A stretch of DNA of 64,000 bases from a phage. Numbering within the stretch: the stretch's first letter is position 1; each line of letters starts with the position of its first letter. The stretch lies in assembly GCA_025829515.1 (NCBI GenBank), contig GCA_025829515.1_4865.1, one strand, 5' to 3'. The position numbers were made by a program, and so were the translations under genes. Of the stretch, positions 6,521 to 62,976 are shown piece after piece. Under the pieces are notes generated by a model. The model saw nothing but the letters and a program-made list of their open reading frames with translations. It made no database searches and had not been told where the DNA came from.

Positions 6521-6534
6521 GGAGCATCCTTAAA

Positions 6535-7059: not shown

Positions 7060-7071
7060 GGTAAACTTGAA

Positions 7072-41798: not shown

Positions 41799-41812
41799 TT
41801 CTGGAGGCGTTA

Positions 41813-42819: not shown

Positions 42820-42822
42820 GCC

Positions 42823-45840: not shown

Positions 45841-45845
45841 GTGTA

Positions 45846-45888
45846 TACCAGCTATCCTTCGGGGTGGCTGGTACGCTTTATTTTATTT
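45846..45888 (+). terminator. rho-independent terminator
   Basis: taccagc / gctggta stem enclosing a cc-ttcg-gg mini-hairpin, then tttattttattt. Confidence 0.7.
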
Positions 45889-45913
45889 CAGATAGATGTT
45901 ATCTCAGTGAACC
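45886..45913 (+). promoter_or_regulatory. promoter-like motif variant (TTTCAGATAGATGTTATCTCAGTGAACC)
   Basis: Matches 37481 variant; overlaps the terminator T-run; upstream of 45968 gene. Confidence 0.4.
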
Positions 45914-45967
45914 TCTGAAATTTACGTTTCAATCAGAGCTTATGTCATGTATTAAGGAGCACTTAAA

Positions 45968-46300
45968 ATGTCTAAAGTCTATCACATTGCGGTATTGCGT
46001 CAGGCAACTGACCTTGAAAGCGACGGTGAACTTCGAATGCAGGAAGCCATTCTGAGCACTGTTAAAGAACTTAACCAAGCAAACAATTTCGATGCACGCT
46101 TCGAAGCGCTGCCTGTAAGCCGTGGTGCTTTCTACGGCAGTCAAATACTGGCAACCCAGTATGCGATGGCGTTAAGTGAATTGCGTAATAACCCTAGCCC
46201 AGAGACCGCAGCGAAGATGAACAAGCTGTCGTTATGGATGAATAACCTGGATGTCCCCGCAGCATCCACTGTAAGTGGTTTGGGGGTGGTTAATGGGTAG
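45968..46300 (+). CDS. hypothetical protein (110 aa)
   Basis: AAGGAG upstream. Confidence 0.65.
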   Translation: MSKVYHIAVLRQATDLESDGELRMQEAILSTVKELNQANNFDARFEALPVSRGAFYGSQILATQYAMALSELRNNPSPETAAKMNKLSLWMNNLDVPAASTVSGLGVVNG

Positions 46301-46628
46301 AGTAATCGGTGTTGCCAGACCAATGCGTCTCAATAGGACACCGATGATAAAACGTGATATCGGTGAAGCTGTAAAACAGTTGTCGAATATCGACGGTTAC
46401 ACCTTTAAAGTGATAACACTGTACGACTACCCAGAAGGTAAAGTTCCGCAAGAGGCGCTGGATATATTCGTTAATGTATTAGACGATTGCCTTAAGAGTC
46501 CAACGGACGTAAATCTTATCAAACTAAACACCATGTCCCTTGAACTGTACCGGCTGCGTAAAATGGGCATTCATGCTCGCATCGGTAAAGGTGACCAAAC
46601 GTTAGCCGAATACTGGGCTAAACAGTAA
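46293..46628 (+). CDS. hypothetical protein (111 aa)
   Basis: ATG overlapping upstream stop by 8 nt (track start 46275 is GTG). Confidence 0.6.
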   Translation: MGRVIGVARPMRLNRTPMIKRDIGEAVKQLSNIDGYTFKVITLYDYPEGKVPQEALDIFVNVLDDCLKSPTDVNLIKLNTMSLELYRLRKMGIHARIGKGDQTLAEYWAKQ

Positions 46629-46655
46629 GCTATTTTAAATCCTAAGGAGCATTAA

Positions 46656-47174
46656 GTGAATATTATCATGAACCTGTATACCAAACGGGAACGTAACGTT
46701 TTAGAATCGGGCGTTGCCCCGGAAGTATTGGCTGCGGGGGATATTAGTATCGACCCATTGAAAGTGAAAGTCGCGGAACTGTTCCCTCGTGATGAATGGG
46801 ACATCTGGTATTTCCGTTGTTCGTCGGTATTAAATGCAATCAAGCAACTGTCTGATTATCAGCCTGGTCCGTATATCGGTACTTGGCACTGGTACGTTCC
46901 ACGCACACCAAACTTCCTTTACCTGCACGACGATGATAAACGTACTCATATTCGCACTGTAGCGACGCCTGCGCGTTTGGAGCGTTATCTGGAGCTAATC
47001 CACGACCGGCCTCGTAACGAGCTGCAGAGCATCGTAGAGGTGCTCAGACAGGTACCTTTAGACGGTATACTGGAACTGGACATGAAAATCGCCGATCGTC
47101 CGAGACATTACTGGGAATTTTCCTGGGTAGACGCGAAGTACGAAAACCATAACGTTATCTATCTGAAACGTTAA
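46656..47174 (+). CDS. hypothetical protein (172 aa)
   Basis: GTG start with AAGGAG 6 nt upstream (alternative ATG at 46668). Confidence 0.65.
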   Translation: MNIIMNLYTKRERNVLESGVAPEVLAAGDISIDPLKVKVAELFPRDEWDIWYFRCSSVLNAIKQLSDYQPGPYIGTWHWYVPRTPNFLYLHDDDKRTHIRTVATPARLERYLELIHDRPRNELQSIVEVLRQVPLDGILELDMKIADRPRHYWEFSWVDAKYENHNVIYLKR

Positions 47175-47184
47175 GGGGGACAGG

Positions 47185-47505
47185 ATGTTGAACTGGTTAC
47201 TTGCGCTGATTAACAAGCGACAAAAACAACTGTACGAAGAAAACCGAGAATTAGCTGCCGCTAACCGTCGTGTACAGGCCGATAACTTGCAGTTAAGACA
47301 CGACCTCGCGAAACTGGACGTTAATGCGAGTAGGCTCTGCACGCACATAAGTCGCTGTCACGACATTATCGAACGTATTGGGCACTACCATCTTACGTCC
47401 CCTGCGCGTCGTGCCTATGACGCGGCCGTTCAGGGATTAAAAGATACCAGGAGTGCGTACGACGAGATGTTAGAAGAATTTAGTAAACGTGAGGATAAAA
47501 ACTAA
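47185..47505 (+). CDS. coiled-coil protein (106 aa)
   Basis: N-terminal heptad-like region; TAATG coupling to the next gene. Confidence 0.6.
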   Translation: MLNWLLALINKRQKQLYEENRELAAANRRVQADNLQLRHDLAKLDVNASRLCTHISRCHDIIERIGHYHLTSPARRAYDAAVQGLKDTRSAYDEMLEEFSKREDKN

Positions 47506-47888
47506 TGGAAATGCCAATGAACACCGACTTAGCACTGGCAATCGAACACATGAAAAACCATCAGCTGACGTTACTGAATGCAAGCACAGACGGACAACGT
47601 CAAGGGTATGCACTCGTTGCAAAAGCAGCGTTAGAACTTAACAAAATCCTGCTCGCTAAACTCTACAGCCTGGAGAACAGCGTGCTTCACGCAACGCATC
47701 TGGGTGAGGCCAGCGAGCTGGTTACAGACGTGCGCCTATATGCATCGCGCGAAATGGAGCGCTTAGTCAACGAGTGGAACCTTCAGTGTAACAGTGAGCG
47801 TGCTGATAACGATCCACGTAAAGTTGCACTGACGCCAGGCGTGTATATCAAGGACGGTAGCATCAACGAATATACCGGATTTAACTGA
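47505..47888 (+). CDS. hypothetical protein (127 aa)
   Basis: Coupled ORF. Confidence 0.6.
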   Translation: MEMPMNTDLALAIEHMKNHQLTLLNASTDGQRQGYALVAKAALELNKILLAKLYSLENSVLHATHLGEASELVTDVRLYASREMERLVNEWNLQCNSERADNDPRKVALTPGVYIKDGSINEYTGFN

Positions 47889-47911
47889 TCGGTAGATAAG
47901 GGTGATTGTGA

Positions 47912-48337
47912 ATGGTAACCATAGACGTAGCTATCTCTATCGAGCTTCAACGCATCGGTGTAGGTACACTAAAACTTCGTTATCGCGATTTACCGCATTA
48001 CAACAAGATGTTTGATGTTGGGGTGATAAAGTTTTATAACCGGTACGGGCCAAGAGAACTATGTCTATGGTTTGTTGAGTTAGCGATAACCTACGGCGAG
48101 TTCTATCATCCTAACATACCACATGTCAGACATGTGTCAAGAGGGCACCTGGAAACTTCCAGAGAGTTCTGTCAGCGATTGTATAGCGCGATGGAGGAGT
48201 CCGCACCCATCGACTATGACGTGCCACCTGAACTGTTATTAATCGACCACGAAGGAGAAGCTGGTGTCTATTTCATTACGGGGACTGACTATTCACGAGA
48301 TTCAGAAATATTTACTCGAGGGCGGGAAACTGACTGA
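47912..48337 (+). CDS. hypothetical protein (141 aa)
   Basis: ORF; 3' end overlapped by the next ORF. Confidence 0.6.
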   Translation: MVTIDVAISIELQRIGVGTLKLRYRDLPHYNKMFDVGVIKFYNRYGPRELCLWFVELAITYGEFYHPNIPHVRHVSRGHLETSREFCQRLYSAMEESAPIDYDVPPELLLIDHEGEAGVYFITGTDYSRDSEIFTRGRETD

Positions 48338-48569
48338 CGACTATCAAACCGCAGATATGTTGCTACAGTCATTTGTACCGTTACGTGCTGAGTATTACGA
48401 AATCGCGTTCCTGGGCGATGAATATTGTGTCCGTACACAAGGTCGCGAGTACGAAGCAGTTCGCGTACCACGAACACTCGGCGGGGTGATGATACTTATC
48501 GCTAATATCGAAGCACTCAATGCGAAATGTGCGTTATACATCGCACATGGAGGTCGCAATGGATTTTAA
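48264..48569 (+). CDS. hypothetical protein (101 aa)
   Basis: GTG start with GGAG at 48254-48257; overlaps upstream gene by 74 nt in another frame. Confidence 0.45.
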   Translation: MSISLRGLTIHEIQKYLLEGGKLTDDYQTADMLLQSFVPLRAEYYEIAFLGDEYCVRTQGREYEAVRVPRTLGGVMILIANIEALNAKCALYIAHGGRNGF

Positions 48570-48634
48570 GTGGGAACCGTTAACGTTAGCAGAAATTCGT
48601 AACAGAATCGATAGAGCTATTGCAAGGAGAAAAC

Positions 48635-49036
48635 ATGTTCGGCCTGTTTCAGGAGAAAAAACAGTTGCGTCGCCAATTAGAAATACTGGAATTGGAACTC
48701 AGCCTATCAAAGACTGAGTTGGAAATTTCGAAAGAAGCGTGGAAAAGAAATCTTGATGAATCTTTCGAAGAACGCCGTAAGCTTACACGACTACTTTCTG
48801 AGGAACAGTCTAAGAACCGGAAACTCGAAGATGAGCTACGGGATGCCCGACGAGATGCGGATCTGCGTGACAAGATGTTAGGACGGAACCTGGGTGCCCT
48901 AATCTATTTCATAGAGCAACGTTGGGAACCAAAAACACTCCTTGAGTTGCTCTATGAAAAACTCTCCTGTGTAGGTAAACGTTCTGCGGCCATCGAGTAT
49001 TTCCGTAGTCACGGTTTCGAGGTAAAAGATGAGTAA
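48635..49036 (+). CDS. coiled-coil protein (133 aa)
   Basis: ATG at 48635 with AAGGAG 5 nt upstream (track start 48620 is TTG); charged heptad repeats. A competing 52 aa ORF (48559-48717, GGAGG SD) overlaps its start. Confidence 0.6.
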   Translation: MFGLFQEKKQLRRQLEILELELSLSKTELEISKEAWKRNLDESFEERRKLTRLLSEEQSKNRKLEDELRDARRDADLRDKMLGRNLGALIYFIEQRWEPKTLLELLYEKLSCVGKRSAAIEYFRSHGFEVKDE

Positions 49037-49113
49037 ATTAGAGGTTGGCAGGCTGTTCGTTAATCCTTAAAAGCAACAGTTTCAAATTAGTTACGACCAT
49101 AAGGAGTATTAAA

Positions 49114-49554
49114 ATGTTAAAGCCACGCAAACAGAAAAGATTACAGTTTGTCAAAATAGTACATCCGGAGTCCCGTCGTGTTACAGGTGGACGTCTCTAC
49201 GTGGGTAAACACCGTAGTCGTCTTATCAGCTGGTCGGCAATGGCCAACGTAGCCACCCAACTCCAGGCAATGGTTGAAGACCGTTGTCAGTTAAAAGGTG
49301 ATTTCTTTCAAGAGAAGAAACCCTATCGTGATATCTTCCGTACACTAAAAGCGTGCTGGGTACTCAGCTGGGTGCCTGGCCGCGAACAACTTTATTTTCT
49401 GCGTAAGTTCCCACGCCCTATGCCGAAGGAAAACATTAGCGTTTTCTTAGACAAACTAAAACGCTTTAATGACATCGGCATTAACGCTAATAAAGAGCAA
49501 GTTTCTGCTACAGTAGCAGCCCGGAAACTCTTACGCGATTACGTGGCCGATTGA
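49114..49554 (+). CDS. hypothetical basic protein (146 aa)
   Basis: ATG at 49114 with AAGGAG upstream (track start 49045 extended). Confidence 0.65.
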   Translation: MLKPRKQKRLQFVKIVHPESRRVTGGRLYVGKHRSRLISWSAMANVATQLQAMVEDRCQLKGDFFQEKKPYRDIFRTLKACWVLSWVPGREQLYFLRKFPRPMPKENISVFLDKLKRFNDIGINANKEQVSATVAARKLLRDYVAD

Positions 49555-49595
49555 CTTGAGAGGCACTTATCCCAAAAGAGGTCAATAAAGCAGCA

Positions 49596-49631
49596 CCCTA
49601 CTCCTTCGGGAGTAGGGTTTCTTCTTTTTTT
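49596..49631 (+). terminator. rho-independent terminator (UUCG tetraloop)
   Basis: ccctactcc-ttcg-ggagtaggg plus tttcttcttttttt. Confidence 0.85.
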
Positions 49632-49651
49632 GTCTAGTCCGATTACAATTA

Positions 49652-49680
49652 TTTTCAGATATATATTACTTAGGTGAGAG
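49652..49680 (+). promoter_or_regulatory. conserved promoter-like motif, copy 3
   Basis: TTTTCAGATATATATTACTTAGGTGAGAG; leader ctaatcgaccattatcttaaggag related to copies 1 and 2. Confidence 0.55.
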
Positions 49681-49729
49681 TTAACCATTAACTCTTATCT
49701 AATCGACCATTATCTTAAGGAGTTTTAAC

Positions 49730-50176
49730 ATGTACATTCTGAATAACGAACTTACTAAGTACGCTAGCAAAAACCCGATTATGATTTCTTTCCTAATCGT
49801 GATGGCGGCCAACAAACAAGACCCTAGCGAATTCACTACTGAGGACTTCGAAGAGATTATCGCTAACGCCAAAGAAGCCACGTTCCAGACCACAGAGCCT
49901 ACTCGCGACGAGTTCCCCCTAGGTGAAGCCGGCGATGTAATGTTTAACGACATGGTTGCTTCGTACTACATCAATAGACGTGGTATGGAAATCGAATACG
50001 ATGAACTTCCTACTAGCAGCTTTGCTGAAATGATTCGTGATTATCGTCGTCAAGTTGTCTCTGACGATATCGTAAAGAAATACATGGCACAAATCAGCCC
50101 ATTCAGTCTTGAATTCGAAAACCGCGCGGTTGCCTTAGCAACACATCGCCTGCGTTTAGAAAAAGAAGTACACTAA
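49730..50176 (+). CDS. hypothetical protein (148 aa)
   Basis: First gene after promoter cassette copy 3; AAGGAG upstream. Confidence 0.7.
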   Translation: MYILNNELTKYASKNPIMISFLIVMAANKQDPSEFTTEDFEEIIANAKEATFQTTEPTRDEFPLGEAGDVMFNDMVASYYINRRGMEIEYDELPTSSFAEMIRDYRRQVVSDDIVKKYMAQISPFSLEFENRAVALATHRLRLEKEVH

Positions 50177-50237
50177 TAATAACCCGGCGGGCAAAGTCCC
50201 GCCAATCAACCTGCAATCTACAAAAAAGGAATATCCC

Positions 50238-50456
50238 ATGCGCAACCTCTTCTCCAAATCTGAAATCAAACCTGTTGTTGAAACCACCGCCAAACGTAAG
50301 CCTGACATGATTGACCTGCTGCTGAAAATGTCTGCAGCAGAAGCCAAAGCTTTCATGAAAACAATGAAAGACGGCGATAAAATGATTGACAATGTTGAAG
50401 TAACCTACGGTGTTAAAGACCGCCCAAAGAATAACGGCCTCGTGTGGGTCTGTTAA
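50238..50456 (+). CDS. small protein, probably abundant (72 aa)
   Basis: AAAAGGA upstream; high-expression-type codon usage. Confidence 0.6.
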   Translation: MRNLFSKSEIKPVVETTAKRKPDMIDLLLKMSAAEAKAFMKTMKDGDKMIDNVEVTYGVKDRPKNNGLVWVC

Positions 50457-50477
50457 TCGACGATTGAGGATAAAGTC

Positions 50478-50909
50478 GTGAACGTAATCAAAAAGCTGAA
50501 CGGCGATACTTTCCATGCTCTGATGCCGAAGGGTGCACGTATTCGGATAAACAACAAAAACAAACCCTATAAGACGGACTACACGTTCGACACCACTGAC
50601 CACGCATTCGGTATCTGCGACGAAGGGACGAACGATGTCAAATGGATTATCGTGGTATACGAAACGTCTAGTGGGTATAAGTTCTGGGATGCCTATGAAC
50701 TGCAGAAGGGCTATTGGTGGTATGTCAGTTGGGAAGCTTTCAATGACAAGGTATCTTATTCGTGGAACGACTTCCCGCACTTTTGCTGGGATAGTTGGTT
50801 TCATGATTGCGGGGATAAGATTTCTGATCTTGTCCAGGAACTCTACAAACACTACAAAGAACACAATGGAAACTTCGTCTATCCTGAATGGGAACTGCCG
50901 AAGTCGTGA
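50478..50909 (+). CDS. Trp-rich hypothetical protein (143 aa)
   Basis: GTG start with GAGGA upstream; terminator follows. Confidence 0.6.
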   Translation: MNVIKKLNGDTFHALMPKGARIRINNKNKPYKTDYTFDTTDHAFGICDEGTNDVKWIIVVYETSSGYKFWDAYELQKGYWWYVSWEAFNDKVSYSWNDFPHFCWDSWFHDCGDKISDLVQELYKHYKEHNGNFVYPEWELPKS

Positions 50910-50914
50910 AGAAA

Positions 50915-50960
50915 AGGGAGCTTCGGCTCCCCTTCTTTTTTGTTTCCTTTTCTTTTTTTG
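50915..50960 (+). terminator. rho-independent terminator (UUCG tetraloop)
   Basis: gggagc-ttcg-gctccc followed by a very long T-rich run. Confidence 0.8.
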
Positions 50961-51062
50961 TTTGCTCTTGTTCGGATTCTGGTACGCACTACGCTTTTAA
51001 TATGCTGGCAGGGGGTCTAAAAATCTTACGACCTCAATAATCCCTTAACTCGAGTTAACGCG

Positions 51063-51860
51063 ATGTCTTTTACTTCAAAACAGAATCTGCTAAAACTCAT
51101 CAACGAAGAGAATAAGATAAGCCCACCGCTTACCTTTGACGATGTTGATATCGGACTGCCGGAGGTTGTGTCAGTAGACGGTCGTGATTCGGAGGTAGTC
51201 CTTACCTCGAAGATGCGCGGTGATGAAGGTACGCAAGTGATTGTGGACTACCATCGTCGCCCATTAGAGGACTACCTTACAGGCGATGTTGCCTTTGGAG
51301 ACGAGGACGTGCAAACCACGCACGACTTACTCGCGGCGATTAACGAGCGTTTTAATCTGTCTATCTTACCTGAGGATATCGAAGATAACCCCATTGATGG
51401 ACAGACGCACACAGTCGTTGCTGTTGAAACTTCCCACGAGTGGCGAAGTCAAGCGGTCATCGAGCTGAAACCTGCTACACCTCTGGCAGAAGTAGTAACC
51501 AATACAGAGTTGAGCGGTCTTCTGTACCCGGATCACCAGGACATCCAGTTGGGTCAGGCGTATATCTATTCGCGTGACATCGATTGTAGCCACATCTCTC
51601 GTTTCCTGAGCCTCTTAGCGGTCGGTATCGAGGTAGATGACACGGCGTTGGCAATCGAACTCAACAAATGTGTTCCTGAGATTTGGGTAGCTGAAGATAC
51701 CCCATCCCCGTATAACCTGCGTGGTGCCACTGTCGTATTCGACGGCGTACCTGCAGACTTGCCGGGAGCAAATACGGCGTTCGCGAATGTCGTGTCAGTG
51801 CAACTGACCGATAAATGTACGAACTTCCAGGGCAGCCTCAACCTACACTTTAACAACTAG
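51063..51860 (+). CDS. paralog family 1 member 1, virion/fibre-like (265 aa)
   Basis: Shares an N-terminal domain of about 90 aa (LL..IN..N ... NT ... YDR ... L) and a C-terminal LH(F/Y)N motif with six downstream paralogs. Confidence 0.7.
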   Translation: MSFTSKQNLLKLINEENKISPPLTFDDVDIGLPEVVSVDGRDSEVVLTSKMRGDEGTQVIVDYHRRPLEDYLTGDVAFGDEDVQTTHDLLAAINERFNLSILPEDIEDNPIDGQTHTVVAVETSHEWRSQAVIELKPATPLAEVVTNTELSGLLYPDHQDIQLGQAYIYSRDIDCSHISRFLSLLAVGIEVDDTALAIELNKCVPEIWVAEDTPSPYNLRGATVVFDGVPADLPGANTAFANVVSVQLTDKCTNFQGSLNLHFNN

Positions 51861-51870
51861 GAGGGTATAG

Positions 51871-52713
51871 GTGTCTATTTACGATAAGCCCTCGAAAGAG
51901 ATGTTGTTAGATGCTATTAACCGACAGAACGGATTAACGGCCAATCCACTCACATGGGAGCAGGTTGCAACTGGCTTCCCTGAGTCTGTCCAAACGCCTG
52001 GCGCTGACCGGAATACGCGTGTGCTCTTATACGGGTTGAACGGCAAGGGCTACAAAGGCAACGTTACGCTCGAATACGACCGTATCGAAATGGAAATTCT
52101 GTTCAGGAACGTAATACCGGTAGTCGTTGCCGACCCGGTAAATAAACTCTCTGAGTTGTTGCCGTTTCTGAATGCGAAATACGGCTTGTCTTTAGTTGCC
52201 GATGATATCGTTGACCAGTCAGTAAAAGATTTGGGAGAAAGCTGGTTAATCGATGTGACTATTAAGCCCGGTTGCTTGGCCTGGCAAGGTGGTTTCCGTT
52301 TACGCTTTGCGAAGTTCTTCCCGAACTTGGCGGATGTGGTGACGGATGTTGACCTCAGCGCAATAATCGCACCGTTCGTGGTTGCTAGTAAACCACAGGC
52401 CGAGTATGTGGCGTATGGTTACGATTGGACTGAACTGCAAAAACAGTTCACCACCGATTGGGTTTACAACCGTGCAATCACTGCAGCGGATGTTGAGTTG
52501 TTGAATGAAGTGGTGCCATTAAAGTTTGCATATGTGACGGGGGCGAATGCGCAACCTGAACAAATTGCACTCCAAGGTGCACGATTTATGGGGATAACTT
52601 CAGTCACACCGAACGATAGTTACAACCCCGATTATCAGCGTGTGGCGATTATCAAGCTAGCTGCGGACAGCAACTACGCCGGTAATCTCATCCTTCATTA
52701 TCTCCCGATATAA
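51871..52713 (+). CDS. paralog family 1 member 2 (280 aa)
   Basis: GTG start with GAGGG 5 nt upstream; family N-terminal domain; ends LHYLPI. Confidence 0.7.
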   Translation: MSIYDKPSKEMLLDAINRQNGLTANPLTWEQVATGFPESVQTPGADRNTRVLLYGLNGKGYKGNVTLEYDRIEMEILFRNVIPVVVADPVNKLSELLPFLNAKYGLSLVADDIVDQSVKDLGESWLIDVTIKPGCLAWQGGFRLRFAKFFPNLADVVTDVDLSAIIAPFVVASKPQAEYVAYGYDWTELQKQFTTDWVYNRAITAADVELLNEVVPLKFAYVTGANAQPEQIALQGARFMGITSVTPNDSYNPDYQRVAIIKLAADSNYAGNLILHYLPI

Positions 52714-52723
52714 GGATTTTGAC

Positions 52724-53569
52724 ATGCCACTTTTAGCCACAGCTGAAAAGATTATTATCGCGGAAGTTAACGTCGAAAACAATCTCGATTTAAAAGTCGA
52801 GGATGTTGTTTTTGGTGTCCCTGCGATTCCAACGTCTGACGAAGACTTGGCAAAAGCTAACGGTCACAACGCGATGGTGCGCATTCAGGCATTGGCCACG
52901 GCTAATGCTATCGGTGCCACTACCGTGTATTACGATCGTGTTGACTTCGCAGACATGTTTACCGATCCGGACGGGATTCAACCTTTACGTGTTCCTGCGC
53001 GTCTCGATGCTGTTTACCAGATGCATGACGTGGTCGGGTTAATTAACCAGTATTACGGTCTCAGCCTTAAACCTGCAGATGTGGTGAATACCGAAATCGA
53101 CAGGAAGACATGGCGTGTGGATCTGGTTGCCACGCCCACTTCTTTAGGTTGGATAGGGCAACAACAGGTACAGCTGTTACCAGGCGATGCCTTGCTTCCT
53201 GCAAACTTCGAACCGTTAACAGTGACACCTTACGAGTACCCGTATTTCAACATCAAGGTCGGTCAAGGTGCAGTTTATTCGTATCCCTGGCGCTTTGATA
53301 ATTTCGCGGAGGAATTTCAACGACTAGGTGCTGCGATAACCACAGAACGTCTGGCACAGATTCTCAAAACGGTCACCGGGGATAACTGGACAACGTACCG
53401 TAACCCTATCGACTTTAACCTTCGTGAAGCCGTCGTCGTCTATAACGGGCGTAACAAAGCGGAATTACCAACCAACCCAGCAGTCGACAACGTGCTGATT
53501 GTGGAGCTGTCGTTGTACTGTCTGAATTTTGGCGGGCGTTTGTATTTGCATTACAACGACCCTGATTAA
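52724..53569 (+). CDS. paralog family 1 member 3 (281 aa)
   Basis: Family member by position and C-terminal LHYN motif. Confidence 0.65.
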   Translation: MPLLATAEKIIIAEVNVENNLDLKVEDVVFGVPAIPTSDEDLAKANGHNAMVRIQALATANAIGATTVYYDRVDFADMFTDPDGIQPLRVPARLDAVYQMHDVVGLINQYYGLSLKPADVVNTEIDRKTWRVDLVATPTSLGWIGQQQVQLLPGDALLPANFEPLTVTPYEYPYFNIKVGQGAVYSYPWRFDNFAEEFQRLGAAITTERLAQILKTVTGDNWTTYRNPIDFNLREAVVVYNGRNKAELPTNPAVDNVLIVELSLYCLNFGGRLYLHYNDPD

Positions 53570-53590
53570 TCCTGAGTAAAGGAAGTAAGA

Positions 53591-54502
53591 ATGAAACCTT
53601 TAAACAAAACGTCCGATCAGCTGGTTCTGGATTTTATTAATGAGAAAAACCCAGACGCAGAACTGGAACTTTCTAAAATAACGCTCGGCACACCGACCCC
53701 TATTGTCGATGAAGGTGCCGATCGCAATACCAGCATGACCCTGACTGCGAAAAAGAACTCCGGGTACATCGGTACTCAGGACGTGACTTATAATCGCCTG
53801 GAAGGCGGTGCGCTGTTCCGTAATGTAACCGCATACCTCGACGTTAAACTGCCGAAAACCACCACCGACCTGCTGACGACCCTGAACACCCAATACGGAT
53901 TGAAGCTGACCGAAGACGATATCGTTCCGGCGGCTATTCCGGAAAATACCAACCCGCCGCTGACTAACCCGAACGATCCGGACCCAGCACCGGTTGACCA
54001 TGTCATTACCTTCAAAGAAGACTGCTACGCTTATCTGGGCAGCATCCCGGTTAAAATCGGTGCTAAGCCTCAGGTTGGTGAACGTCTGAGTCTGGTGGTA
54101 ACACAAACCAAGCTCGACGGCCTGGTTTACCCAGATGGTCCAAGCGAAGCGAAGGGTCAGGGCTACATCTACTCTTACGGTGTAGACTGCACAGCAATCG
54201 CAGCATTCCTGAAAGTACAGACGAAAGGTGTTATCGCTGGCGACTCTGCATTCCCGGTTGAGCTGAATAAAGTTGTGCCGGAACTGTGGGTTGCATCTGA
54301 TGAGCCTGCGGATTATAACCTGAAAGGTGCTAACGTGTTGTACGTTGGTTCTACTACTGACGATGGCACTGCTTCAGGCGACGATCCTAAGAAACCGGTT
54401 GAAGGTGCAAACACTGCTTACAACCAGGTTCTGCTGCTGCAGCTGGATGACACTCTGTGCACCAACTTCCAGGGCGTCATGTACCTGCACTTTAATGCCT
54501 AA
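53591..54502 (+). CDS. paralog family 1 member 4, codon-optimised and probably the abundant member (303 aa)
   Basis: Family N-terminal domain; markedly stronger high-expression codon bias than its neighbours; the only member followed directly by a terminator. Confidence 0.7.
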   Translation: MKPLNKTSDQLVLDFINEKNPDAELELSKITLGTPTPIVDEGADRNTSMTLTAKKNSGYIGTQDVTYNRLEGGALFRNVTAYLDVKLPKTTTDLLTTLNTQYGLKLTEDDIVPAAIPENTNPPLTNPNDPDPAPVDHVITFKEDCYAYLGSIPVKIGAKPQVGERLSLVVTQTKLDGLVYPDGPSEAKGQGYIYSYGVDCTAIAAFLKVQTKGVIAGDSAFPVELNKVVPELWVASDEPADYNLKGANVLYVGSTTDDGTASGDDPKKPVEGANTAYNQVLLLQLDDTLCTNFQGVMYLHFNA

Positions 54503-54514
54503 TTAGGCCTCGCT

Positions 54515-54556
54515 GGGAGGAGGAAATCCTCCTCCTGGCTACTCCTTTCTTTTTTG
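54515..54556 (+). terminator. rho-independent terminator inside the paralog array
   Basis: ggaggagg-aaat-cctcctcc plus T-rich run. Confidence 0.75.
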
Positions 54557-54571
54557 GCCGAGGAGGCTATT

Positions 54572-55411
54572 ATGGCTTTATATAGTCTGTCTCAGCGACA
54601 ATATCTGTACGATGCGATTAATGCCGAAAACCCGGATGCTGTTCTACCGATGGGTTTAGACAATGCTATCATCGGTACGCCGAAAGCAATCACACCGACA
54701 GCAAGCGGTGCCAATACTGAGATTATCATTCGTGGTCGTCAAGGTCGTGGCTATATCGGTCCTCAGACGTTCCGTTATAAGCGCTTGTCGCTGAACGACT
54801 TATTTAAGAACATGACACCTCAGGTAACTGCACCGAATGCCTACGGTTGGTTGAACGTGGAGTCGAAACGTACTGCGTTTGCGCAGAACCTGAACGGTCG
54901 TTATGGATTAAACCTGGTTGCAGACGATATCCCAGAACAATACGTTTATCTGAACGTAAACAACACGATGCGCATTAACGCTAGCTGTATCCAATACACT
55001 GGCAGCATCACCTTTATGTCTATCCGGGGTAAGAATAGTCTCGAAGACCTCGTGGTAAACGACATCTTGTTGGCTTTGAACCACCCTGCAGCAGCAAGCA
55101 CTGGTAAGAAATACATGGGCTTCTTGACGTACGGGGAAGACTTTACCGATGAAGTGCAGGTTATGGCCTCGTTTAAGAACGGGCGAATGGATGTAGGAAG
55201 TAACTTTGATTTGGGTTACACGTCCAATCTGATGGCCACATTGGTCGCACGTGGGGTACCGTCGTTTGATCCGACGAACTGCACAATTACCCGCTACAAA
55301 ACGAGTGAGTTGGCGACCGCCAATAAAGCGTACGATAACGTATTGCTGATTACCGGCATTCAGAACGACCCGAAAGTAATCGGCGAGTGTATGTTGCACT
55401 ACAACAACTAG
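54572..55411 (+). CDS. paralog family 1 member 5 (279 aa)
   Basis: ATG at 54572 with GAGGAGG upstream (track start 54554 is TTG inside the terminator tail). Confidence 0.7.
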   Translation: MALYSLSQRQYLYDAINAENPDAVLPMGLDNAIIGTPKAITPTASGANTEIIIRGRQGRGYIGPQTFRYKRLSLNDLFKNMTPQVTAPNAYGWLNVESKRTAFAQNLNGRYGLNLVADDIPEQYVYLNVNNTMRINASCIQYTGSITFMSIRGKNSLEDLVVNDILLALNHPAAASTGKKYMGFLTYGEDFTDEVQVMASFKNGRMDVGSNFDLGYTSNLMATLVARGVPSFDPTNCTITRYKTSELATANKAYDNVLLITGIQNDPKVIGECMLHYNN

Positions 55412-55421
55412 GAATTAGCGA

Positions 55422-56309
55422 ATGGCTATTTATCAACCTTCTAAAGACGTCCTGTTGGCAGCAGTGAACGCACAGAACTCGCTTGCTGTTAAGATGACTG
55501 ACATCATCTGGTCCTCGCCAAAGGACATCCGTGGTACGGAGAAGGAAACGCTGACTAACCGTAACACGCAAATTAAAATTACGGCAGATGGGGTAACGGG
55601 CTCTACCTGGTCGGGTAAGAAAAATGTCTTCTACAACCGCATGAAAGTCGAAGACTTGTTAGTGCTGATTGGTGACACGTTGGCGATCGGCCCATCCAAC
55701 GAAACCTTGTATGCGGCCATTCCTGGACTGAACCAACGTTACGGTTTTGTTCTGGAAGAAGCTGACCTGCAGGACGCAGATATCGAATGGAACGGTGATA
55801 AGACCGAAGGTACTGTGCGCGTTGTTGCACATCCGGAGTCTATCGGCTGGGTTGGACAGGCGACATTTAAAGTCGTGAAAGGCGATGAGTCGTTAGTCTC
55901 TGCGGTCACTACTAACGTCCTGACCGGTCTGAAATACCCGAACGGTCAGATGGGTTCCGAAACCGTTACTGCGGTCATTGCAGAGGTTTATTCCTACCCG
56001 TACAACTTCACCAAATACCGTGATGAGTTGCTGGCATACGTGCCGGGTATTCTGTCCGGGCAGCCGTTAACGGATATGGTTAACCTGCTGAAAGATATCA
56101 CGGGTACTGCATGGGTAGCGACCACCTCCGCTTCCTACGGTTTGGCGGGCGCGGAGGTTATCAGCGTTGGTCTGAATGACCCTGTTGCAATGCCGACAAA
56201 CGCGAAGTACAAGTATGCGCTGGTGTTGAAACTGCCTGTTACCTGTACCACCATCGTCGGAACGTTGTATCTCCAGTTCAACGATCTGGACGATCCAAGC
56301 GAGGTATAA
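55422..56309 (+). CDS. paralog family 1 member 6 (295 aa)
   Basis: Family N-terminal domain; ends LYLQFNDLDDPSEV. Confidence 0.7.
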   Translation: MAIYQPSKDVLLAAVNAQNSLAVKMTDIIWSSPKDIRGTEKETLTNRNTQIKITADGVTGSTWSGKKNVFYNRMKVEDLLVLIGDTLAIGPSNETLYAAIPGLNQRYGFVLEEADLQDADIEWNGDKTEGTVRVVAHPESIGWVGQATFKVVKGDESLVSAVTTNVLTGLKYPNGQMGSETVTAVIAEVYSYPYNFTKYRDELLAYVPGILSGQPLTDMVNLLKDITGTAWVATTSASYGLAGAEVISVGLNDPVAMPTNAKYKYALVLKLPVTCTTIVGTLYLQFNDLDDPSEV

Positions 56310-56312
56310 TTG

Positions 56313-57140
56313 ATGATCAACTATGCTAAGCCGTCAAACGAGTTGGTCTTTGACCTCATTAACCGGGATAACCCAAACCTACCTATTAAAGCGTCGCCGG
56401 CAAACTGCTACGTGGAGAAAGTGACACAGGTTCCCGTTAATGCAGCTTCCAACAACCGCAATACGTCGGCACGCTTGCGCGGTATTCAGGGTTCTGGATT
56501 TCGAGACGCAATCACCGTTTACTACGACCGTGTGAACTTAGCGCGGTTATTGCCGTGGGGGCCTTCCGTCCAGGCGCAGTTCGTCACGTTTGACGCACCC
56601 AACCTCCACTCAGCCTTTTCGGTGCTCTTGGATACCTACGGAGTAAACTTCTCCGCAATCGATATCCAAAACTACTCACTGTTTGGTGCCAATACCCCAA
56701 ATTACACCAATACACAGACCATTGCAGCGCTATCGACATCTCCGGCTTATATCGGTTCTGCGACGTTGCGTTATAACCGTGGTTTACCGGTACTAGACAC
56801 TTCGGTGAAATCGGATGTCTTGAATGCGATTCAAGAGCCTATTTCACCGTCTCTCGGTAAGAAGTGTATTGATTTGTTGACGTACGGTATTGACTTTACC
56901 GCGTATAAAAACCTACTGACAGTAGATGCTTCTGGCCTACCGCAGTGGGCTGGTTTGCGTAAGGTGTTGGATGACCTGGGTATTCCGAACTACGCGGGGC
57001 CACTGAACAGCAACACCGTTCAGGATGTGCCGACTTCCACCGCTCAGTTCGCTAACAAATCGTACGACCGCGTGGTTATCCAAACGGGTATCGATGAGGA
57101 AGGCGTGAAAGGCGTGGCGTACTACCACTATAACAGCTAA
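56313..57140 (+). CDS. paralog family 1 member 7 (275 aa)
   Basis: ATG at 56313 (track start 56310 is TTG); family N-terminal domain; ends YYHYNS; terminator follows. Confidence 0.7.
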   Translation: MINYAKPSNELVFDLINRDNPNLPIKASPANCYVEKVTQVPVNAASNNRNTSARLRGIQGSGFRDAITVYYDRVNLARLLPWGPSVQAQFVTFDAPNLHSAFSVLLDTYGVNFSAIDIQNYSLFGANTPNYTNTQTIAALSTSPAYIGSATLRYNRGLPVLDTSVKSDVLNAIQEPISPSLGKKCIDLLTYGIDFTAYKNLLTVDASGLPQWAGLRKVLDDLGIPNYAGPLNSNTVQDVPTSTAQFANKSYDRVVIQTGIDEEGVKGVAYYHYNS

Positions 57141-57145
57141 GTGTA

Positions 57146-57170
57146 GGGGCTCTTCGGAGCCCCATCTTTT
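57146..57170 (+). terminator. terminator hairpin (UUCG tetraloop)
   Basis: ggggctc-ttcg-gagcccc followed by atctttt. Confidence 0.7.
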
Positions 57171-57187
57171 GGCGATGCGGAGTCCCT

Positions 57188-58600
57188 ATGCTATTTTACT
57201 CGAAGGAGTCGGCACTGCTTGTATACGACCAAGTCAATCGGGATAACCCTGATTTAGTTATTAAGCTGACGCCGGCTATCGCTGCTTTAACCAGTGGCCC
57301 AACCTCAGTTACGTTAAACCAACGTAACACCAAAGCTGTTTTCACCGGGTATCCAGGGACAGGTGTACAAGGTAATGTTACCGTGTACTACGACCGGATT
57401 AACCTGGCCACCTTATTTAATTTTGTGCCGACTGTGGCTATCAAAGACACAGTCTTAACGGTACGAGACGCGTTACCTGCAATAAACGACGCATTAGGAC
57501 TTACATTAGTTGCTTCTGATTTGCAGTCACCTGACGCAAGTTTACCTAAACCGAGCGTTTCGCCGCAGACGTTGAAATTAAATATCTCAGGCAATTGCCC
57601 TGCGTTTACAGGCAGCTTAACGATACGTTATACCGTCCCGAGTGGTGCAATTTACCCCGATTCTGGACCTGGCCCTAAAACGTTGCTGCAAGGTAACACT
57701 ATCGCGGGTTATTTCGGAACAACCAGAACTGCAGAGTTGTTTACACACTCTCAACTTCTTAATGCCACTATATCGGCCGGTGCGTTACCACCGGTACATT
57801 CTGGTGCCGAAGGTTGGTACAAGTTCTTTTACCAGGGTAGGGTTATTTACCTCCCGATCAGTCCTGTCGCTGGCTCCATCTCCTGGAATACGTTATATAC
57901 AAACGGACTCGTTTACGGAACAGACGATAACGGTAAATACCCTGCAGCGACGCCCGTTAACCAGGGACGCATCATTAGCTTTACAGGCGCAGACAACAAA
58001 AGGTTTTACTTCCGTGTTCGTCTACCTAGTGCCGGGAAAGACCCATACGTCAGCGGCACCCCAACTGCCGCTGAGTTAGCAGGTAGTGAGTTTGAGATGT
58101 TCAACTTTCTGTATAATGGAACGTGGGACAAACCGATTAACAGTTACTGGACGCTGTTCTGTTTATTGAAAGATACACTGAAGACCAACGTCGCCCATCA
58201 TCGCATGGCGACGTTGTCTGGAGCAAGTTGGACAAACTTAGAAAAATCATCGAGTGCGGGCAACTACTACTGGTTCCCGGTGCTGGAGTTGGTGGATAAG
58301 TCCACAGTTACCTTGGGTTTAGAAGATATCCACGGTACGGCAGATTACAGTCTCCAACCGTGCAGCGTGTCCGCAGAAAACACATTTAGTCTCAAGCCGT
58401 TAGTGCTCGGTAATCCGGATACTACCGATTTCGAACCGGTAGTTGTTACTTCAGAAAACAGTTTCGCACTGCATCCGCCTGCTTTAATGCTGCCGAAGAC
58501 AGTCGACTTCCAACCTATTGCGGCTACCGCTGAAATGTATACGCCCCCTGACAAGACAACGTTAACGTCTCTTAACGGTGAACTGGACGGCTTTAAGTAG
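57188..58600 (+). CDS. cassette gene A1: family 1 N-terminal domain plus GPGP module, fibre/receptor-binding candidate (470 aa)
   Basis: N-terminus homologous to family 1; central GPGP...GYFG...ELF...YGTDD...RLP module; C-terminal NGELDGFK shared with A2. Confidence 0.7.
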   Translation: MLFYSKESALLVYDQVNRDNPDLVIKLTPAIAALTSGPTSVTLNQRNTKAVFTGYPGTGVQGNVTVYYDRINLATLFNFVPTVAIKDTVLTVRDALPAINDALGLTLVASDLQSPDASLPKPSVSPQTLKLNISGNCPAFTGSLTIRYTVPSGAIYPDSGPGPKTLLQGNTIAGYFGTTRTAELFTHSQLLNATISAGALPPVHSGAEGWYKFFYQGRVIYLPISPVAGSISWNTLYTNGLVYGTDDNGKYPAATPVNQGRIISFTGADNKRFYFRVRLPSAGKDPYVSGTPTAAELAGSEFEMFNFLYNGTWDKPINSYWTLFCLLKDTLKTNVAHHRMATLSGASWTNLEKSSSAGNYYWFPVLELVDKSTVTLGLEDIHGTADYSLQPCSVSAENTFSLKPLVLGNPDTTDFEPVVVTSENSFALHPPALMLPKTVDFQPIAATAEMYTPPDKTTLTSLNGELDGFK

Positions 58601-58611: not shown

Positions 58612-59610
58612 ATGTCTTTTACTTTGCGTTGGAAAAATCCAAACGTAATCTCTACGGTAGTAAAAATCTACCGTGATGTTAAAGATATCACACCAAGCGC
58701 TTTGCCTGAACCGATTGCAACGCTCTCAAACGGCGAGACAGAATGGCGTGATACCACCGCCACACCAGGCGCAACCTATTATTACCTTCTGACGGTAACC
58801 GCCAACGGTAAAACAGTGGCATCGTCTAGCCAGAAATATACCATTGAACTGAAGCGGGGAATCGGTCCAATGACTATTCTAAACGGTGACGACCGTTTAG
58901 GGTTTATGGGTGCGGTTCCTTACGACGAACAGTGGCTTCCGTCGCAAATGCCACCTGCATTTTTGGCGATGTTCCCTAACCTACTAACCGATCGTGTGGC
59001 GTTGTATAAATTTACCCGAAACGGGAAGATCTATTACATGCTATCTAGCACGTCGCAGTTCCCGAATACGCCTGTGGACTGGGCTTCCCTCTATCAAGCT
59101 GGTTTAGTCTACGGTACAGGCGATGCTGGCCCAGAGAACGGCCATGGAACGCTACCGGCCACTCCACAAGACGCTAAGATAGTCCACAGAGGGGATACGT
59201 ACATTATGCGTCTTCCTCGCGGCCTGACGACGTCTAGCGAGTCTCCTGCGTATCCTTTCGTGGCTGACTACAATGGGAAAACCCACGATGAAATCGCTTC
59301 TCTAACCAACCCGTGCGAGTATAACGATTTACTTTACACGATGGTTAACGAGGTGCCGAAGAAACAACGTTGGGCTAACTGGGCAACAATCGGTTATACT
59401 TATCTGGGACAGGGTACTTTGGGAACCTTGGCACAGTATTTCGGCGGTGGTGTTCTCTGTATGGAACACGACACCGCGGAAGACCGTGTGCTCCATCGTG
59501 GTATTTTTAACAATGCCGGTGGAACACCCGTATCCACGATTCAGCGTATAAACTATTTATCACCCACCACGAAAGGGCGCTACTACCCTATCTTTGAACT
59601 GGTCGAGTAA
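58612..59610 (+). CDS. cassette gene B1: FN3/Ig-like N-terminal domain plus shared module (332 aa)
   Basis: FN3-like N-terminus (W..P ... KIYRD ... TYYY..TVTA); paralog of 61988-62974. Confidence 0.7.
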   Translation: MSFTLRWKNPNVISTVVKIYRDVKDITPSALPEPIATLSNGETEWRDTTATPGATYYYLLTVTANGKTVASSSQKYTIELKRGIGPMTILNGDDRLGFMGAVPYDEQWLPSQMPPAFLAMFPNLLTDRVALYKFTRNGKIYYMLSSTSQFPNTPVDWASLYQAGLVYGTGDAGPENGHGTLPATPQDAKIVHRGDTYIMRLPRGLTTSSESPAYPFVADYNGKTHDEIASLTNPCEYNDLLYTMVNEVPKKQRWANWATIGYTYLGQGTLGTLAQYFGGGVLCMEHDTAEDRVLHRGIFNNAGGTPVSTIQRINYLSPTTKGRYYPIFELVE

Positions 59611-59619
59611 GGGGCAGTC

Positions 59620-60543
59620 ATGACTATACGGTTAAGCTGGCCGTCCCAAGCCAGCAAAGGTCTTACCGCGATTGAAATCTACCGCAAGGAAGGATGGAAC
59701 GCAACAATCGACGTTTACAACCCAGGCACACCCCACGCCACCTTATCCGGTAGCGCGGTAGAGTTCGTAGATAATATCGATACCCTGACGAAGAATACAA
59801 CTTATCGTTACTGGGTAGCTGCTGTGAAAGATAATGAACGACTTATCGGCAATCCGATTACGCAAGGGTTCTATCCGGACACTGGACCGGGGCCACAAAC
59901 TATTTTGCGTGGCGATTGGGCGTCAGGCTATTTCGGTACGGTATCTAATACCGAGTTCTTTAATACTGCCGAGTTAAAACTCATGTTAACCGCGCAGCAG
60001 GGAAACATGTTTACTTACGACCCTCAGGAATGGCACAAGTTTATTTTCCGTGGGCGAATTGTCTTCTTCCCAGCGACGATGCATTCGAAAAGCAACTCGG
60101 TACAAATGGCGTATCAGTACGGCATGATGTACGGGACCGATGATGTCGGAAGTATTGTTCCGCAGGGAGCCACGGCGACTAAACAAGATTGTAAGGTCAC
60201 GAAGGATGGTCGTACGTACCGTATCCGATTACCTTACGCAGTCCCGTACGACGCGGCACTCTCAGGACAGGATTACAACAACGGTGAATGGCGAAACACA
60301 ATGGGCCGTTTGTATCCTGTCGGTGCACAGTACGCAGCCCTCGGTCTTGGTGCGATTGACTCACTTGAAAGACAAGGCGCGACTGCGCAGCCGAATGAGT
60401 CAGGTGCCGCTGTATTAGCTCCTTTGTGGAGCAACAACATATTCGCTTATGCGTATGGCACCGTGCCTATGGGGATTAGTAACACCGCAGGTGTCGGGAA
60501 CTCGGCCACGATATTCTTTGCTTTTGAATTAGTCTTACCGTAA
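59620..60543 (+). CDS. cassette gene C1: FN3/Ig-like N-terminal domain plus GPGP module (307 aa)
   Basis: IEIYRK ... TYRYWVAAVKD FN3-like; DTGPGPQ..GYFGTV..ELF module; paralog of 62977-63876; ends ELVLP. Confidence 0.7.
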   Translation: MTIRLSWPSQASKGLTAIEIYRKEGWNATIDVYNPGTPHATLSGSAVEFVDNIDTLTKNTTYRYWVAAVKDNERLIGNPITQGFYPDTGPGPQTILRGDWASGYFGTVSNTEFFNTAELKLMLTAQQGNMFTYDPQEWHKFIFRGRIVFFPATMHSKSNSVQMAYQYGMMYGTDDVGSIVPQGATATKQDCKVTKDGRTYRIRLPYAVPYDAALSGQDYNNGEWRNTMGRLYPVGAQYAALGLGAIDSLERQGATAQPNESGAAVLAPLWSNNIFAYAYGTVPMGISNTAGVGNSATIFFAFELVLP

Positions 60544-60556: not shown

Positions 60557-61975
60557 ATGGGGTTGTATACAGAACCTTCAATGGAACTGCTCTGCCAACA
60601 AATTGTGCGTGACAATCCCGGTTTAGCAGGAAAAATCACCCCTGACTCCATTGGGGTCAGGGGTGTTCCTGTTGCGAAAAACGTTAACGGACGAAACACT
60701 CAGATTACGTTGGTAGGAAAACCCGGTAAAGGATTTGCTGGGGAAATAACGGTATATTACGACCGGTTGAATCTGGCCAGTCTATTTAAGTCTGGCCCGA
60801 ATATGGTGAGTATTCCACGTAGCGCACAAACCCATGCGGAAGCGTTACCGGCGTTCAATGAATTGAACGGGTTGAACTTAACCGCGAGTGACATCACCAG
60901 TCCAAACGTTGCATTAATGAAATACGCTACGCCGGAAACTGTAACTCTGACGGCGCACGCTAACTCCTTGTGTTATACCGGGTCATGCAAGATGACCTAT
61001 GTTTACGAACCGATTGCGATGTATCCGAAGTCGGGTCCTGGGCCAAAAGGATTAATGGCCGGTAATGAGTTATACGGATTCTTTGGGCTGGTAAGCGCGG
61101 AAGAGTTATTCACATCTGATGAAATGGTGTATGCCCTCTATAACGGCACCAACTGGCCTAACCGCTACGCTATCAAGTGGCTCAAATTCTTTCTGAATGG
61201 GGCGGTAGTGTTTGTTCCGACCCGTGCGATTTGCAACGTTACCTGGGCAGACCTGTACAACAAGGGTGCAATATTTGATTCCGGAGACGCAGGACCTCGC
61301 CCGAAGTCGACTTACACACCTGTCGATGTTGAACAGTTGAAATACATGGTAAAACGGGATGATGAAGGAACGCATTATTTCAGAATGTCTATCCCGTATT
61401 ACACCGAGAACGCCGCCGCGCCTGATTGGAGTAAACCGCCGTCAATCACCTCTATCCTGTCACTGACCAGCAAATTGGGGTCGGTGAACGTATATGGGGA
61501 GTGGGGAACTCTTAGCACGACTGATGCTAACTTCCTGGATTACGTGTGGTTACGACATCAGTTCGGTGCCGACCAAGCGTATTACCAGTCTATCAGTGGG
61601 AGCTATCGTTCATACACCTACATCTACACCTCTTCTGGCTTTTGGCCAATCCTGGAGATGTTTGATGTTGCCAATGAACCTGTGCCGTTGATTGACGAAG
61701 GTGCAGAGCTAACATGGGCACCGTCCGTGGTTACTCTGACGGACATCGACCAAAATGAATCGCTTCGTGTGGTGCCTATTACGGAAACCTCCGCTGCAGC
61801 GAATCCACGTCCTCTGCTTGCCGCGACGGACAATGATGAACGTGCATATTCCGTCGCGGTAACAGGCATGGCTAGCGTTAAGATTAGACCGATTATTCTC
61901 ACGACTGACCAAATCGCCCAACCTTCAAAAATTACTCTGGGCGATACTAACGGTGAGTTGGATGGATTCCAATAA
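60557..61975 (+). CDS. cassette gene A2 (472 aa)
   Basis: Paralog of A1 (shared N-terminal domain, GPGP module, C-terminal NGELDGFQ). Confidence 0.7.
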   Translation: MGLYTEPSMELLCQQIVRDNPGLAGKITPDSIGVRGVPVAKNVNGRNTQITLVGKPGKGFAGEITVYYDRLNLASLFKSGPNMVSIPRSAQTHAEALPAFNELNGLNLTASDITSPNVALMKYATPETVTLTAHANSLCYTGSCKMTYVYEPIAMYPKSGPGPKGLMAGNELYGFFGLVSAEELFTSDEMVYALYNGTNWPNRYAIKWLKFFLNGAVVFVPTRAICNVTWADLYNKGAIFDSGDAGPRPKSTYTPVDVEQLKYMVKRDDEGTHYFRMSIPYYTENAAAPDWSKPPSITSILSLTSKLGSVNVYGEWGTLSTTDANFLDYVWLRHQFGADQAYYQSISGSYRSYTYIYTSSGFWPILEMFDVANEPVPLIDEGAELTWAPSVVTLTDIDQNESLRVVPITETSAAANPRPLLAATDNDERAYSVAVTGMASVKIRPIILTTDQIAQPSKITLGDTNGELDGFQ

Positions 61976-62974: not shown

Positions 62975-62976
62975 TC

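Follow-up and report, generated by a model that had tools for sequence, protein, structure and literature searches.

A 64,000-nucleotide stretch of phage DNA (contig GCA_025829515.1_4865.1 of the NCBI GenBank assembly GCA_025829515.1; hereafter, the window) contains seven related genes placed one after another at positions 51063–57140, and this locus raises the question of what a phage does with so many versions of one protein, in what amounts they are made, and in which part of the particle they reside. The region was filled by seven open reading frames (ORFs) of the plus strand with lengths of 265–303 amino acids (aa), namely 265, 280, 281, 303, 279, 295, and 275/276 aa. These are the published gp138–gp144 of the giant (jumbo) Salmonella phage SPN3US, members of its Paralog family B and virion proteins of the Pfam family DUF7941; together, they form an old tandem array of structural proteins with full-length DUF7941, each of them individually conserved. 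The array region of 6 kb had 98.1–98.7% identity along its full length with SPN3US and about 20 sister Seoulvirus genomes. With SPN3US itself, the nucleotide identity was 98.1% across 100% of the region and the genes were collinear, in agreement with their membership in family B; identity was 82% with STsAS/SPAsTU and about 76% with Erwinia jumbo phages. The seven ORFs correspond to SPN3US_0138–SPN3US_0144 of the original SPN3US numbering, and gp145–gp152 come next. The family was described in 2016–2017 (Thomas 2016, Ali 2017), and the pattern of seven consecutive paralogs, reported in a preliminary description made from the letters of the window, is a correct rediscovery of this published feature, adding little on its own.

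The Pfam model of DUF7941 (PF25613) has 276 positions and a gathering threshold of 27 bits. All seven proteins scored 230–293 bits against positions 1–276 of this model (E from 5e-68 to 4e-87), and all matched PHROG 1037, "virion structural protein". In the order of the array, the full-length matches were those of gp138 (51063–51860, 265 aa, E 4.7e-68), gp139 (51871–52713, 280 aa, E 1.2e-70, from residue 1), gp140 (52724–53569, 281 aa, E 3.8e-80), gp141 (53591–54502, 303 aa, E 4.7e-85), gp142 (54572–55411, 279 aa, E 1.7e-79), gp143 (55422–56309, 295 aa, E 4.6e-82), and gp144 (56313–57140, 275 aa, E 4e-87).

Two start sites deserve a comment. In RefSeq and GenBank, gp139 begins at an ATG equivalent to window position 51901. 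The GTG at 51871 is preceded by AGGAGG 6 nt upstream, and the N-terminus that it opens (MSIYDKPSKE...) can be aligned to the other paralogs as well as to Pfam position 1; gp139 as annotated is probably 10 codons too short. The mechanically called ORF of gp142 begins at TTG 54554 (285 aa), within a T-run on the 3' side of a hairpin; the likely start is ATG 54572, with GAGGAGG 5 nt upstream, as annotated in SPN3US.

In the all-against-all BLASTP comparison, the seven proteins were 18–35% identical with E-values down to 9e-40, and several pairs (gp138/gp141, gp140/gp143, and gp142/gp144) were aligned from end to end. A formal alignment of the N-terminal regions, chosen beforehand as the test of relatedness, thus gave significant similarity. 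The preliminary description had confined the shared part, apart from a C-terminal motif, to an N-terminal domain of about 90 aa; the similarity is real, but the restriction to the N-terminus is not, as homology runs through the whole length and the portable module is of about 150–165 aa. In the seven-way alignment, N-domain, linker, and C-domain had mean pairwise identities of 24%, 26%, and 26%, respectively. Better conservation of the N-domain than of the C-domain was considered and rejected, both being about 25% identical among the seven proteins. The C-terminal motif proposed for the family, LH(F/Y)N, was exact in four of the seven (LHFN in gp138 and gp141, LHYN in gp140 and gp142) and varied in the other three (LHYL in gp139, LQFN in gp143, and YHYN in gp144). 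The C-terminal end of gp127 of phage phiKZ reads IHYN.

The AlphaFold 2 (AF2) model of gp141 (28 sequences) had a mean predicted local distance difference test (pLDDT) value of 85.5 and consisted of two confident alpha/beta halves, residues 1–165 and 186–303, with a linker at 174–182 in which pLDDT was below 50. Despite this low confidence, the linker region keeps the paralog-invariant residues L166 and P181 (L..L.YP). A proline-rich insertion was found in gp141 at residues 116–135. The layout of N-domain, flexible linker, and C-domain, described for gp22 of phage Goslar, was present in the model of gp141, and a Hoc-like fold of immunoglobulin (Ig)-like domains was not found. Fold searches with gp141 returned nothing beyond phiKZ gp127; no function can be read from the fold.

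Whether the copies are individually needed was assessed from other genera. The tandem arrangement, the low codon adaptation of five members, and a family copy number that ranges between 3 (phiKZ) and about 21 (SPN3US) would suit recent redundant duplicates, of which gp141 would be functional and the rest decaying or interchangeable. The relations between genera contradict this: each of the seven genes has its own orthologue in Erwinia phage phiEaH2, with identities of 57–76% on the diagonal of the comparison and 20–37% off it, far above the identity of the paralogs within the array, and most of the seven have an orthologue in Cronobacter phage CR5 as well. The duplications therefore predate these genera, and every copy has been kept. 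All seven ORFs are intact, and all their products have been detected in virions. Judged by these comparisons of sequences, the array is old, every copy is under selection, and simple redundancy is ruled out; we regard an explanation by spare copies as hardly credible. The CR5 array has two extra members (339 and 297 aa; locus 5485–7412) between the orthologues of gp141 and gp142, so the array size varies between genera; CR5_138 matched only profile positions 2–221. In phiEaH2, a gene annotated as "EPS depolymerase" (locus 46–1863) is located directly upstream of the array, where small hypothetical genes are found in the window; it had no profile match and was rejected as a DUF7941 fusion.

The copies are not made in equal amounts. 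With the E. coli weights of Sharp and Li (1987), the codon adaptation index (CAI) was 0.542 for gp141 and 0.256–0.412 for the other six genes (gp138, 0.318; gp139, 0.256; gp140, 0.273; gp143, 0.412; gp144, 0.296), the mean of the 72 ORFs of the window being 0.30 ± 0.08. Among these 72 ORFs, gp141 ranked second, and only the major capsid gene was higher (0.718). A control with the window's own capsid gene as the reference, independent of the table of weights, gave the same ranking, with gp141 first of 71 ORFs (z = 4.0) and gp143 sixth. Codon adaptation is thus not uniform among the paralogs. The strongest bias does belong to gp141, although the earlier statement that it alone is codon-optimized is slightly overstated because gp143 is intermediate.

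The published amounts of the proteins follow the same order. Spectrum counts in virions were 746 for gp141, 346 for gp143, 149 for gp144, 126 for gp142, 94 for gp138, 78 for gp139, and 67 for gp140 (Scheuch 2023, Table S2, PMC10052503), and the published coverage of gp141 was 94%. Both gp141 and gp160 were estimated at >300 copies per capsid, and abundance in family B was described as low for most members, middle for gp143, and high for gp141 and gp160 (Ali 2017, PMC5694885). CAI correlated with the published counts normalized per kDa, both among the array genes (n = 7, Spearman rho 0.86, p = 0.014) and across the 14 family members in the window (Spearman rho 0.64, p = 0.014). The same two CAI peaks were present in the orthologous arrays: 0.58 and 0.44 in phiEaH2, and 0.51 and 0.38 in CR5. 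Thus, gp141 is the major protein at a few hundred copies, gp143 is the next as a subunit of middle abundance, and for the other five, including the minor virion protein gp138, copy numbers are roughly in the tens; codon usage reflects this ranking, which is conserved across three genera. The expectation of one abundant protein accompanied by minor variants was right, and it had already been measured.

Regarding the source of this excess, the spacing between gp140 and gp141 is only 21 nt, so any extra expression of gp141 must have its source in translation, the stability of the mRNA, or a promoter within gp140. The strength of the ribosome-binding site was rejected as the cause: the sites of gp139 and gp142 are stronger than that of gp141. 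These phages use their own RNA polymerases, and a sigma-70 promoter scan of 50500–58000 was, as expected for such a phage, uninformative (4 sites versus 8.0 expected by chance). A stable GC-rich hairpin of 12 bp (54512–54539, plus strand, −28 kcal/mol, z = −4.0) was found directly after the gp141 stop; it may be terminator-like or a 3' stabilizer. It had been taken for a terminator belonging to gp141: the hairpin is present, but the T-rich tract (54546–54555) begins 7 nt past the stem, with T6 at 11 nt, and because of this gap the consensus scan made no call. Equally stable hairpins of different stem sequence follow the gp141 orthologues in phiEaH2 (z −4.3) and CR5 (z −4.2), which indicates that the hairpin is conserved as a structure. 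Two further terminator-like hairpins with T-runs were found on the plus strand: one at 50916–50931 (6 pairs, 5 of them G-C, then CTTCTTTTTT) closes the upstream unit 130 nt before gp138, and the other, at 57146–57163 (7 pairs, 6 of them G-C; the best-scoring site of the scan), closes the seven-gene array.

Antisense ORFs were observed over several genes. An ORF of 715 aa on the minus strand (7048–9195) covers nearly all of the major capsid gene, and shorter ones lie over gp141 (53600–54106) and gp142 (54908–55399); most likely, they are by-products of the strong codon bias of the sense strand and not genes. From the gp124 region to gp138 (window ~42300–51000), the offset between window and SPN3US coordinates shifts by 327 bp; compared with SPN3US, the phage of the window therefore has an indel among the small hypothetical genes gp125–gp137.

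Outside the array, the portable N-module recurs in gp145, gp148, gp151, gp83, and gp122. The N-terminal 150–170 positions of PF25613 were matched at 53–111 bits by gp145, gp148, gp83, and gp122. In gp145 (57188–58600, plus strand), profile positions 1–148 are matched, and the N-module (residues 1–150) is followed by a different C-terminal region, consisting of a YPDSGPGP linker, a putative C-type-lectin-like domain, and a disordered tail (377–470). The second gene of this architecture, gp148 (60557–61975, plus strand), matches positions 1–153 (E 4.3e-30), again before a different C-terminal region, and is 30% identical to gp145 over its full length. The third cassette gene, gp151 (63889–64000, plus strand), runs past the window end; its start reads MGLYSAPELELLCQQVVRDNPEL and resembles the N-terminus of gp148. 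The recurrence of the N-terminal domain in the cassette genes, noted in the preliminary description, was therefore confirmed, by Pfam for gp145 and gp148 and by resemblance for gp151. A PDB sequence search with gp145 gave no matches.

The last 94 residues of gp145 (377–470; window 58318–58600) are predicted to be disordered (pLDDT 33–51) and carry repeated ...F.L.P...P.T.DF.P... motifs and a terminal NGELDGF, the latter conserved in gp148. The cassette partners gp146 and gp147 (58612–60543, plus strand; phrog_1062) lack the DUF7941 N-module and have the gp145-type C-domain; BLASTP of gp146 and gp147 against gp145 residues 154–313 gave E 8e-8 and 1.6e-19, respectively. In gp146 (58612–59610), gp147 (59620–60543), gp149 (61988–62974), and gp150 (62941–63876), this C-domain stands after a YPD(S/T)GPGP linker, and the N-terminal domain is a different one, about 80 aa long, which by eye resembles an Ig-like or fibronectin-III beta-sandwich (…YYY.L.V…) and had no Pfam match.

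Two genes of the window encode the N-module only: gp83 (20486–21013, plus strand; Pfam E 3.5e-14, positions 4–170), head-associated according to published proteomics, and gp122 (41774–42346, plus strand; Pfam E 6.2e-18), which adjoins the tail genes gp123 and gp124. The ORF at 25314–25931 was rejected as a family member, having E 1.3e-3 with our own profile and nothing in Pfam. The profile search returned 3,467 cluster representatives at E ≤ 1e-3. In 24 of the best 149 of these, two to three N-module-plus-linker units were found in series in one polypeptide; such chains are Rosetta-stone-type support for a serial arrangement of N-domains. Metagenomic relatives (P0100, P0104, P0119, P0217, P0243, and others) have two to three tandem units, some of them followed by C-terminal regions of up to 1,537 aa.

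As to where the proteins reside, Paralog family B was listed as about 20 members, comprising gp83, gp138–gp154, gp160/161, and gp237, with gp122 as a candidate, and its function was left as "Head ejection?" (Ali 2017, PMC5694885). In tailless 255(am107) heads, counts of gp138–gp154 were at least equal to those in wild type, and bona fide tail proteins fell below 7% (Scheuch 2023, PMC10052503). All seven array proteins are therefore made, built into the particle, and retained by tailless, DNA-filled heads. The same data set gave 146 counts of gp83 in virions and 125 in tailless heads, and a fall of gp237 from 91 to 4 in tailless heads (Scheuch 2023, PMC10052503). For gp122, which the authors class as a non-virion protein, virions gave counts of 7, 7, and 8 versus 0, 0, and 0 for tailless heads (Scheuch 2023, PMC10052503); its pattern is that of a low-copy tail protein, and it could be the counterpart of the baseplate members of phiKZ. 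With gp122 and gp237 behaving as tail-side members, the module seems to be employed by SPN3US in head and tail alike.

Work on relatives points to the tail. DUF7941 is specific to chimalliviruses; in the virion of Goslar, gp22 (present in ~580 copies) and gp23 (~2140 copies; made up of N-domain and linker only) rank among the most abundant proteins, and 3 of the 10 Goslar members carry carbohydrate-binding, glycoside-hydrolase, or leucine-rich repeat (LRR) domains after the N-module (bioRxiv 10.64898/2026.04.21.720040). Purified gp22 assembles into filaments, and according to AlphaFold 3 predictions the subunits dock head to tail, the N-domain accommodating the linker and C-domain of the subunit that follows (bioRxiv 10.64898/2026.04.21.720040). 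Its authors fitted a gp126-gp127 dimer into leftover baseplate density and proposed a baseplate-anchored "fibre cloud" (bioRxiv 10.64898/2026.04.21.720040). In the 2026 phiKZ atlas, the N-domain of gp127 is docked at the outer end of the phiKZ gp139 spoke in the peripheral baseplate, beside the outermost gp139 dimer; phiKZ gp126 and gp143 are N-module-only relatives, and the genes of gp126 and gp127 are located beside the baseplate wedge gene gp128. By extension to SPN3US, DUF7941 filaments would extend from six peripheral-baseplate sites and the array would provide their major and minor subunits; the tail-side behavior of gp237 and gp122, the latter encoded next to tail genes, agrees with this. 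However, gp138–gp154, gp83, and gp160 were present in CsCl-purified tailless DNA-full heads at 1.1–1.7 times the wild-type normalized level, with true tail proteins below 7%, and free or tail-bound filaments should not band with DNA-filled heads. The Goslar preprint leaves these SPN3US data uncited, and we consider a baseplate location of the array proteins unlikely.

Within the head, the proteins could be internal, packed with the DNA and either ejected or forming the "antler" complexes that lie below the vertices, with gp141 as the bulk component. Their head association, their presence already in the DNA-free prohead preparations of protease mutants, the tentative labels of the SPN3US group ("Head ejection?", "?antler", and "antler"), and the large amount of internal protein of unknown identity in bubblegrams would fit, as would the failure of icosahedral capsid maps of phiKZ or Goslar to resolve the family. 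The protease-null preparations do contain the family, with a ratio of gp141 to capsid protein of about 0.3–0.6 of that in wild type, but they say little on location because tails and flagella are also present in them and they band at the density of protein. The prohead protease cleaves none of the family versus nine other head proteins cleaved; the homologue gp127 is on the outside of the phiKZ baseplate; and the lectin-like domains here, like the glycoside hydrolase and LRR domains in Goslar, are sensible only outside the particle. An internal location is accordingly improbable in our opinion. Counting A-x-E motifs of the prohead protease for the distinction between inside and outside was uninformative, since only 0–2 occur per protein.

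There remains the capsid exterior, and we give about even chances to a composite reading in which the family forms mixed subunit chains on the outside of the capsid, with gp141 as the major subunit, specialized minor subunits, and lectin-like members for adhesion. By analogy with the Goslar model, which stems from the sole experimental and modelling study of the family, subunits would join head to tail, each N-domain taking the linker and C-domain of the next one; the conserved L...YP motif in the predicted flexible linker and the natural proteins with serial N-modules lend this indirect support. The bulk of the chains would be made of gp141 and the N-domain-only gp160; the minor full-length paralogs would be specialized subunits, e.g., starters, joints, or ends; and the N-module fusions gp145, gp148, and gp151 would hang C-type-lectin-like binding domains on the chains. 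The preliminary description had envisaged variants attached through a common N-terminal anchor. The N-module is indeed portable, but homology is whole-length, and the chain model differs from independent docking on a common platform. In this lineage, the chains would be attached outside the capsid, and they may serve first contact with the host or with the host flagellum; flagella are the receptor of SPN3US. A plausible site is the unassigned Hoc-like density that capsids, whether mature or from protease mutants, show at the center of all 260 hexamers (Heymann 2020). The abundance of gp141 is of the right order, as for a Hoc-type copy number, for the 260 hexamer centers of a T=27 capsid, and it comes near that of the sheath and tube proteins, which have 264 copies (PMC5694885, PMC10052503).

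Several points weigh against chains on the head. Filaments have been reported for a single homologue, that of Goslar, in a preprint whose authors place them on the peripheral baseplate (bioRxiv 10.64898/2026.04.21.720040). The only direct density, that of phiKZ gp127, is in the baseplate and not in the head; no DUF7941 protein is present in the high-resolution phiKZ capsid, and none could be modelled in that of Goslar. The labels given to gp141 by the SPN3US group ("Head ejection?" and "?antler") denote internal locations, and, spectral counts being no more than semi-quantitative, the copy number of gp141 agrees only loosely with 260.

The most specific version of the capsid-exterior reading is a tentative one that we think doubtful: gp141 would sit at, or emanate from, each of the 260 hexamer centers, gp160 and gp141 would form the shaft, the minor paralogs would be position-specific starters, joints, and caps, and gp145, gp148, and gp151 would be adhesive tips catching the flagellum or the cell surface. 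If such hexamer-center fibres exist, a single virus family has put the module to use both on the baseplate (phiKZ) and on the capsid (SPN3US), and the "baseplate fibre cloud" model of Goslar needs revising. The matter is of some weight, as the about 20 paralogs make up roughly a tenth of the virion protein species. The conflict between the head, indicated by SPN3US genetics and mass spectrometry, and the baseplate, indicated by phiKZ cryo-electron microscopy and the Goslar model, was previously unremarked. The individual conservation of the copies, their conserved hierarchy, the lectin-like cargo, and the serial N-modules lead to a testable hypothesis of a modular adhesion system movable between head and tail.

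In comparison with known systems, the genes are the same as those of SPN3US Paralog family B (PMC5105663, PMC5694885, PMC10052503), with no difference of substance: the published family likewise has gp138–gp154 in tandem, is head-associated, and has gp141 and gp160 as abundant and gp143 as intermediate members. Our additions are the codon-bias correlation and its conservation in phiEaH2 and CR5, the one-to-one orthology of the paralogs, the conserved hairpin after gp141, and the link between DUF7941, phiKZ gp127, and Goslar.

Goslar gp22 and gp23 belong to the same Pfam family and have the same layout of N-domain, linker, and C-domain as the SPN3US array. In both phages, the virion is dominated by one full-length and one N-domain-only member (gp22 and gp23 in Goslar, gp141 and gp160 in SPN3US), and extra members have the N-module fused to binding domains, lectin-like in SPN3US. 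The two differ in arrangement, the 10 Goslar members being mostly scattered and the 17 of the SPN3US type standing in one tandem block; they differ also in location, since the Goslar model anchors the filaments on the baseplate, whereas SPN3US proteomics puts the family on the head. In phiKZ, there are only three family members (gp127, gp126, and gp143); each virion has about six copies of gp127 (PDB 9XQD, chain 0), located on the outer peripheral baseplate, and no abundant head-associated member has been reported.

Hoc of phage T4, one of the adhesins that decorate capsids at hexamer centers, is non-essential and surface-exposed, with one copy per hexamer center, and may be a functional analogue of the hexamer-center density of SPN3US. 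The flagellotropic phages phiCbK and 7-7-1 bear flexible filaments on their heads, which catch the rotating flagellum. SPN3US is likewise flagellum-dependent, and head-borne chains of DUF7941 proteins would, by analogy only, be comparable to these filaments.

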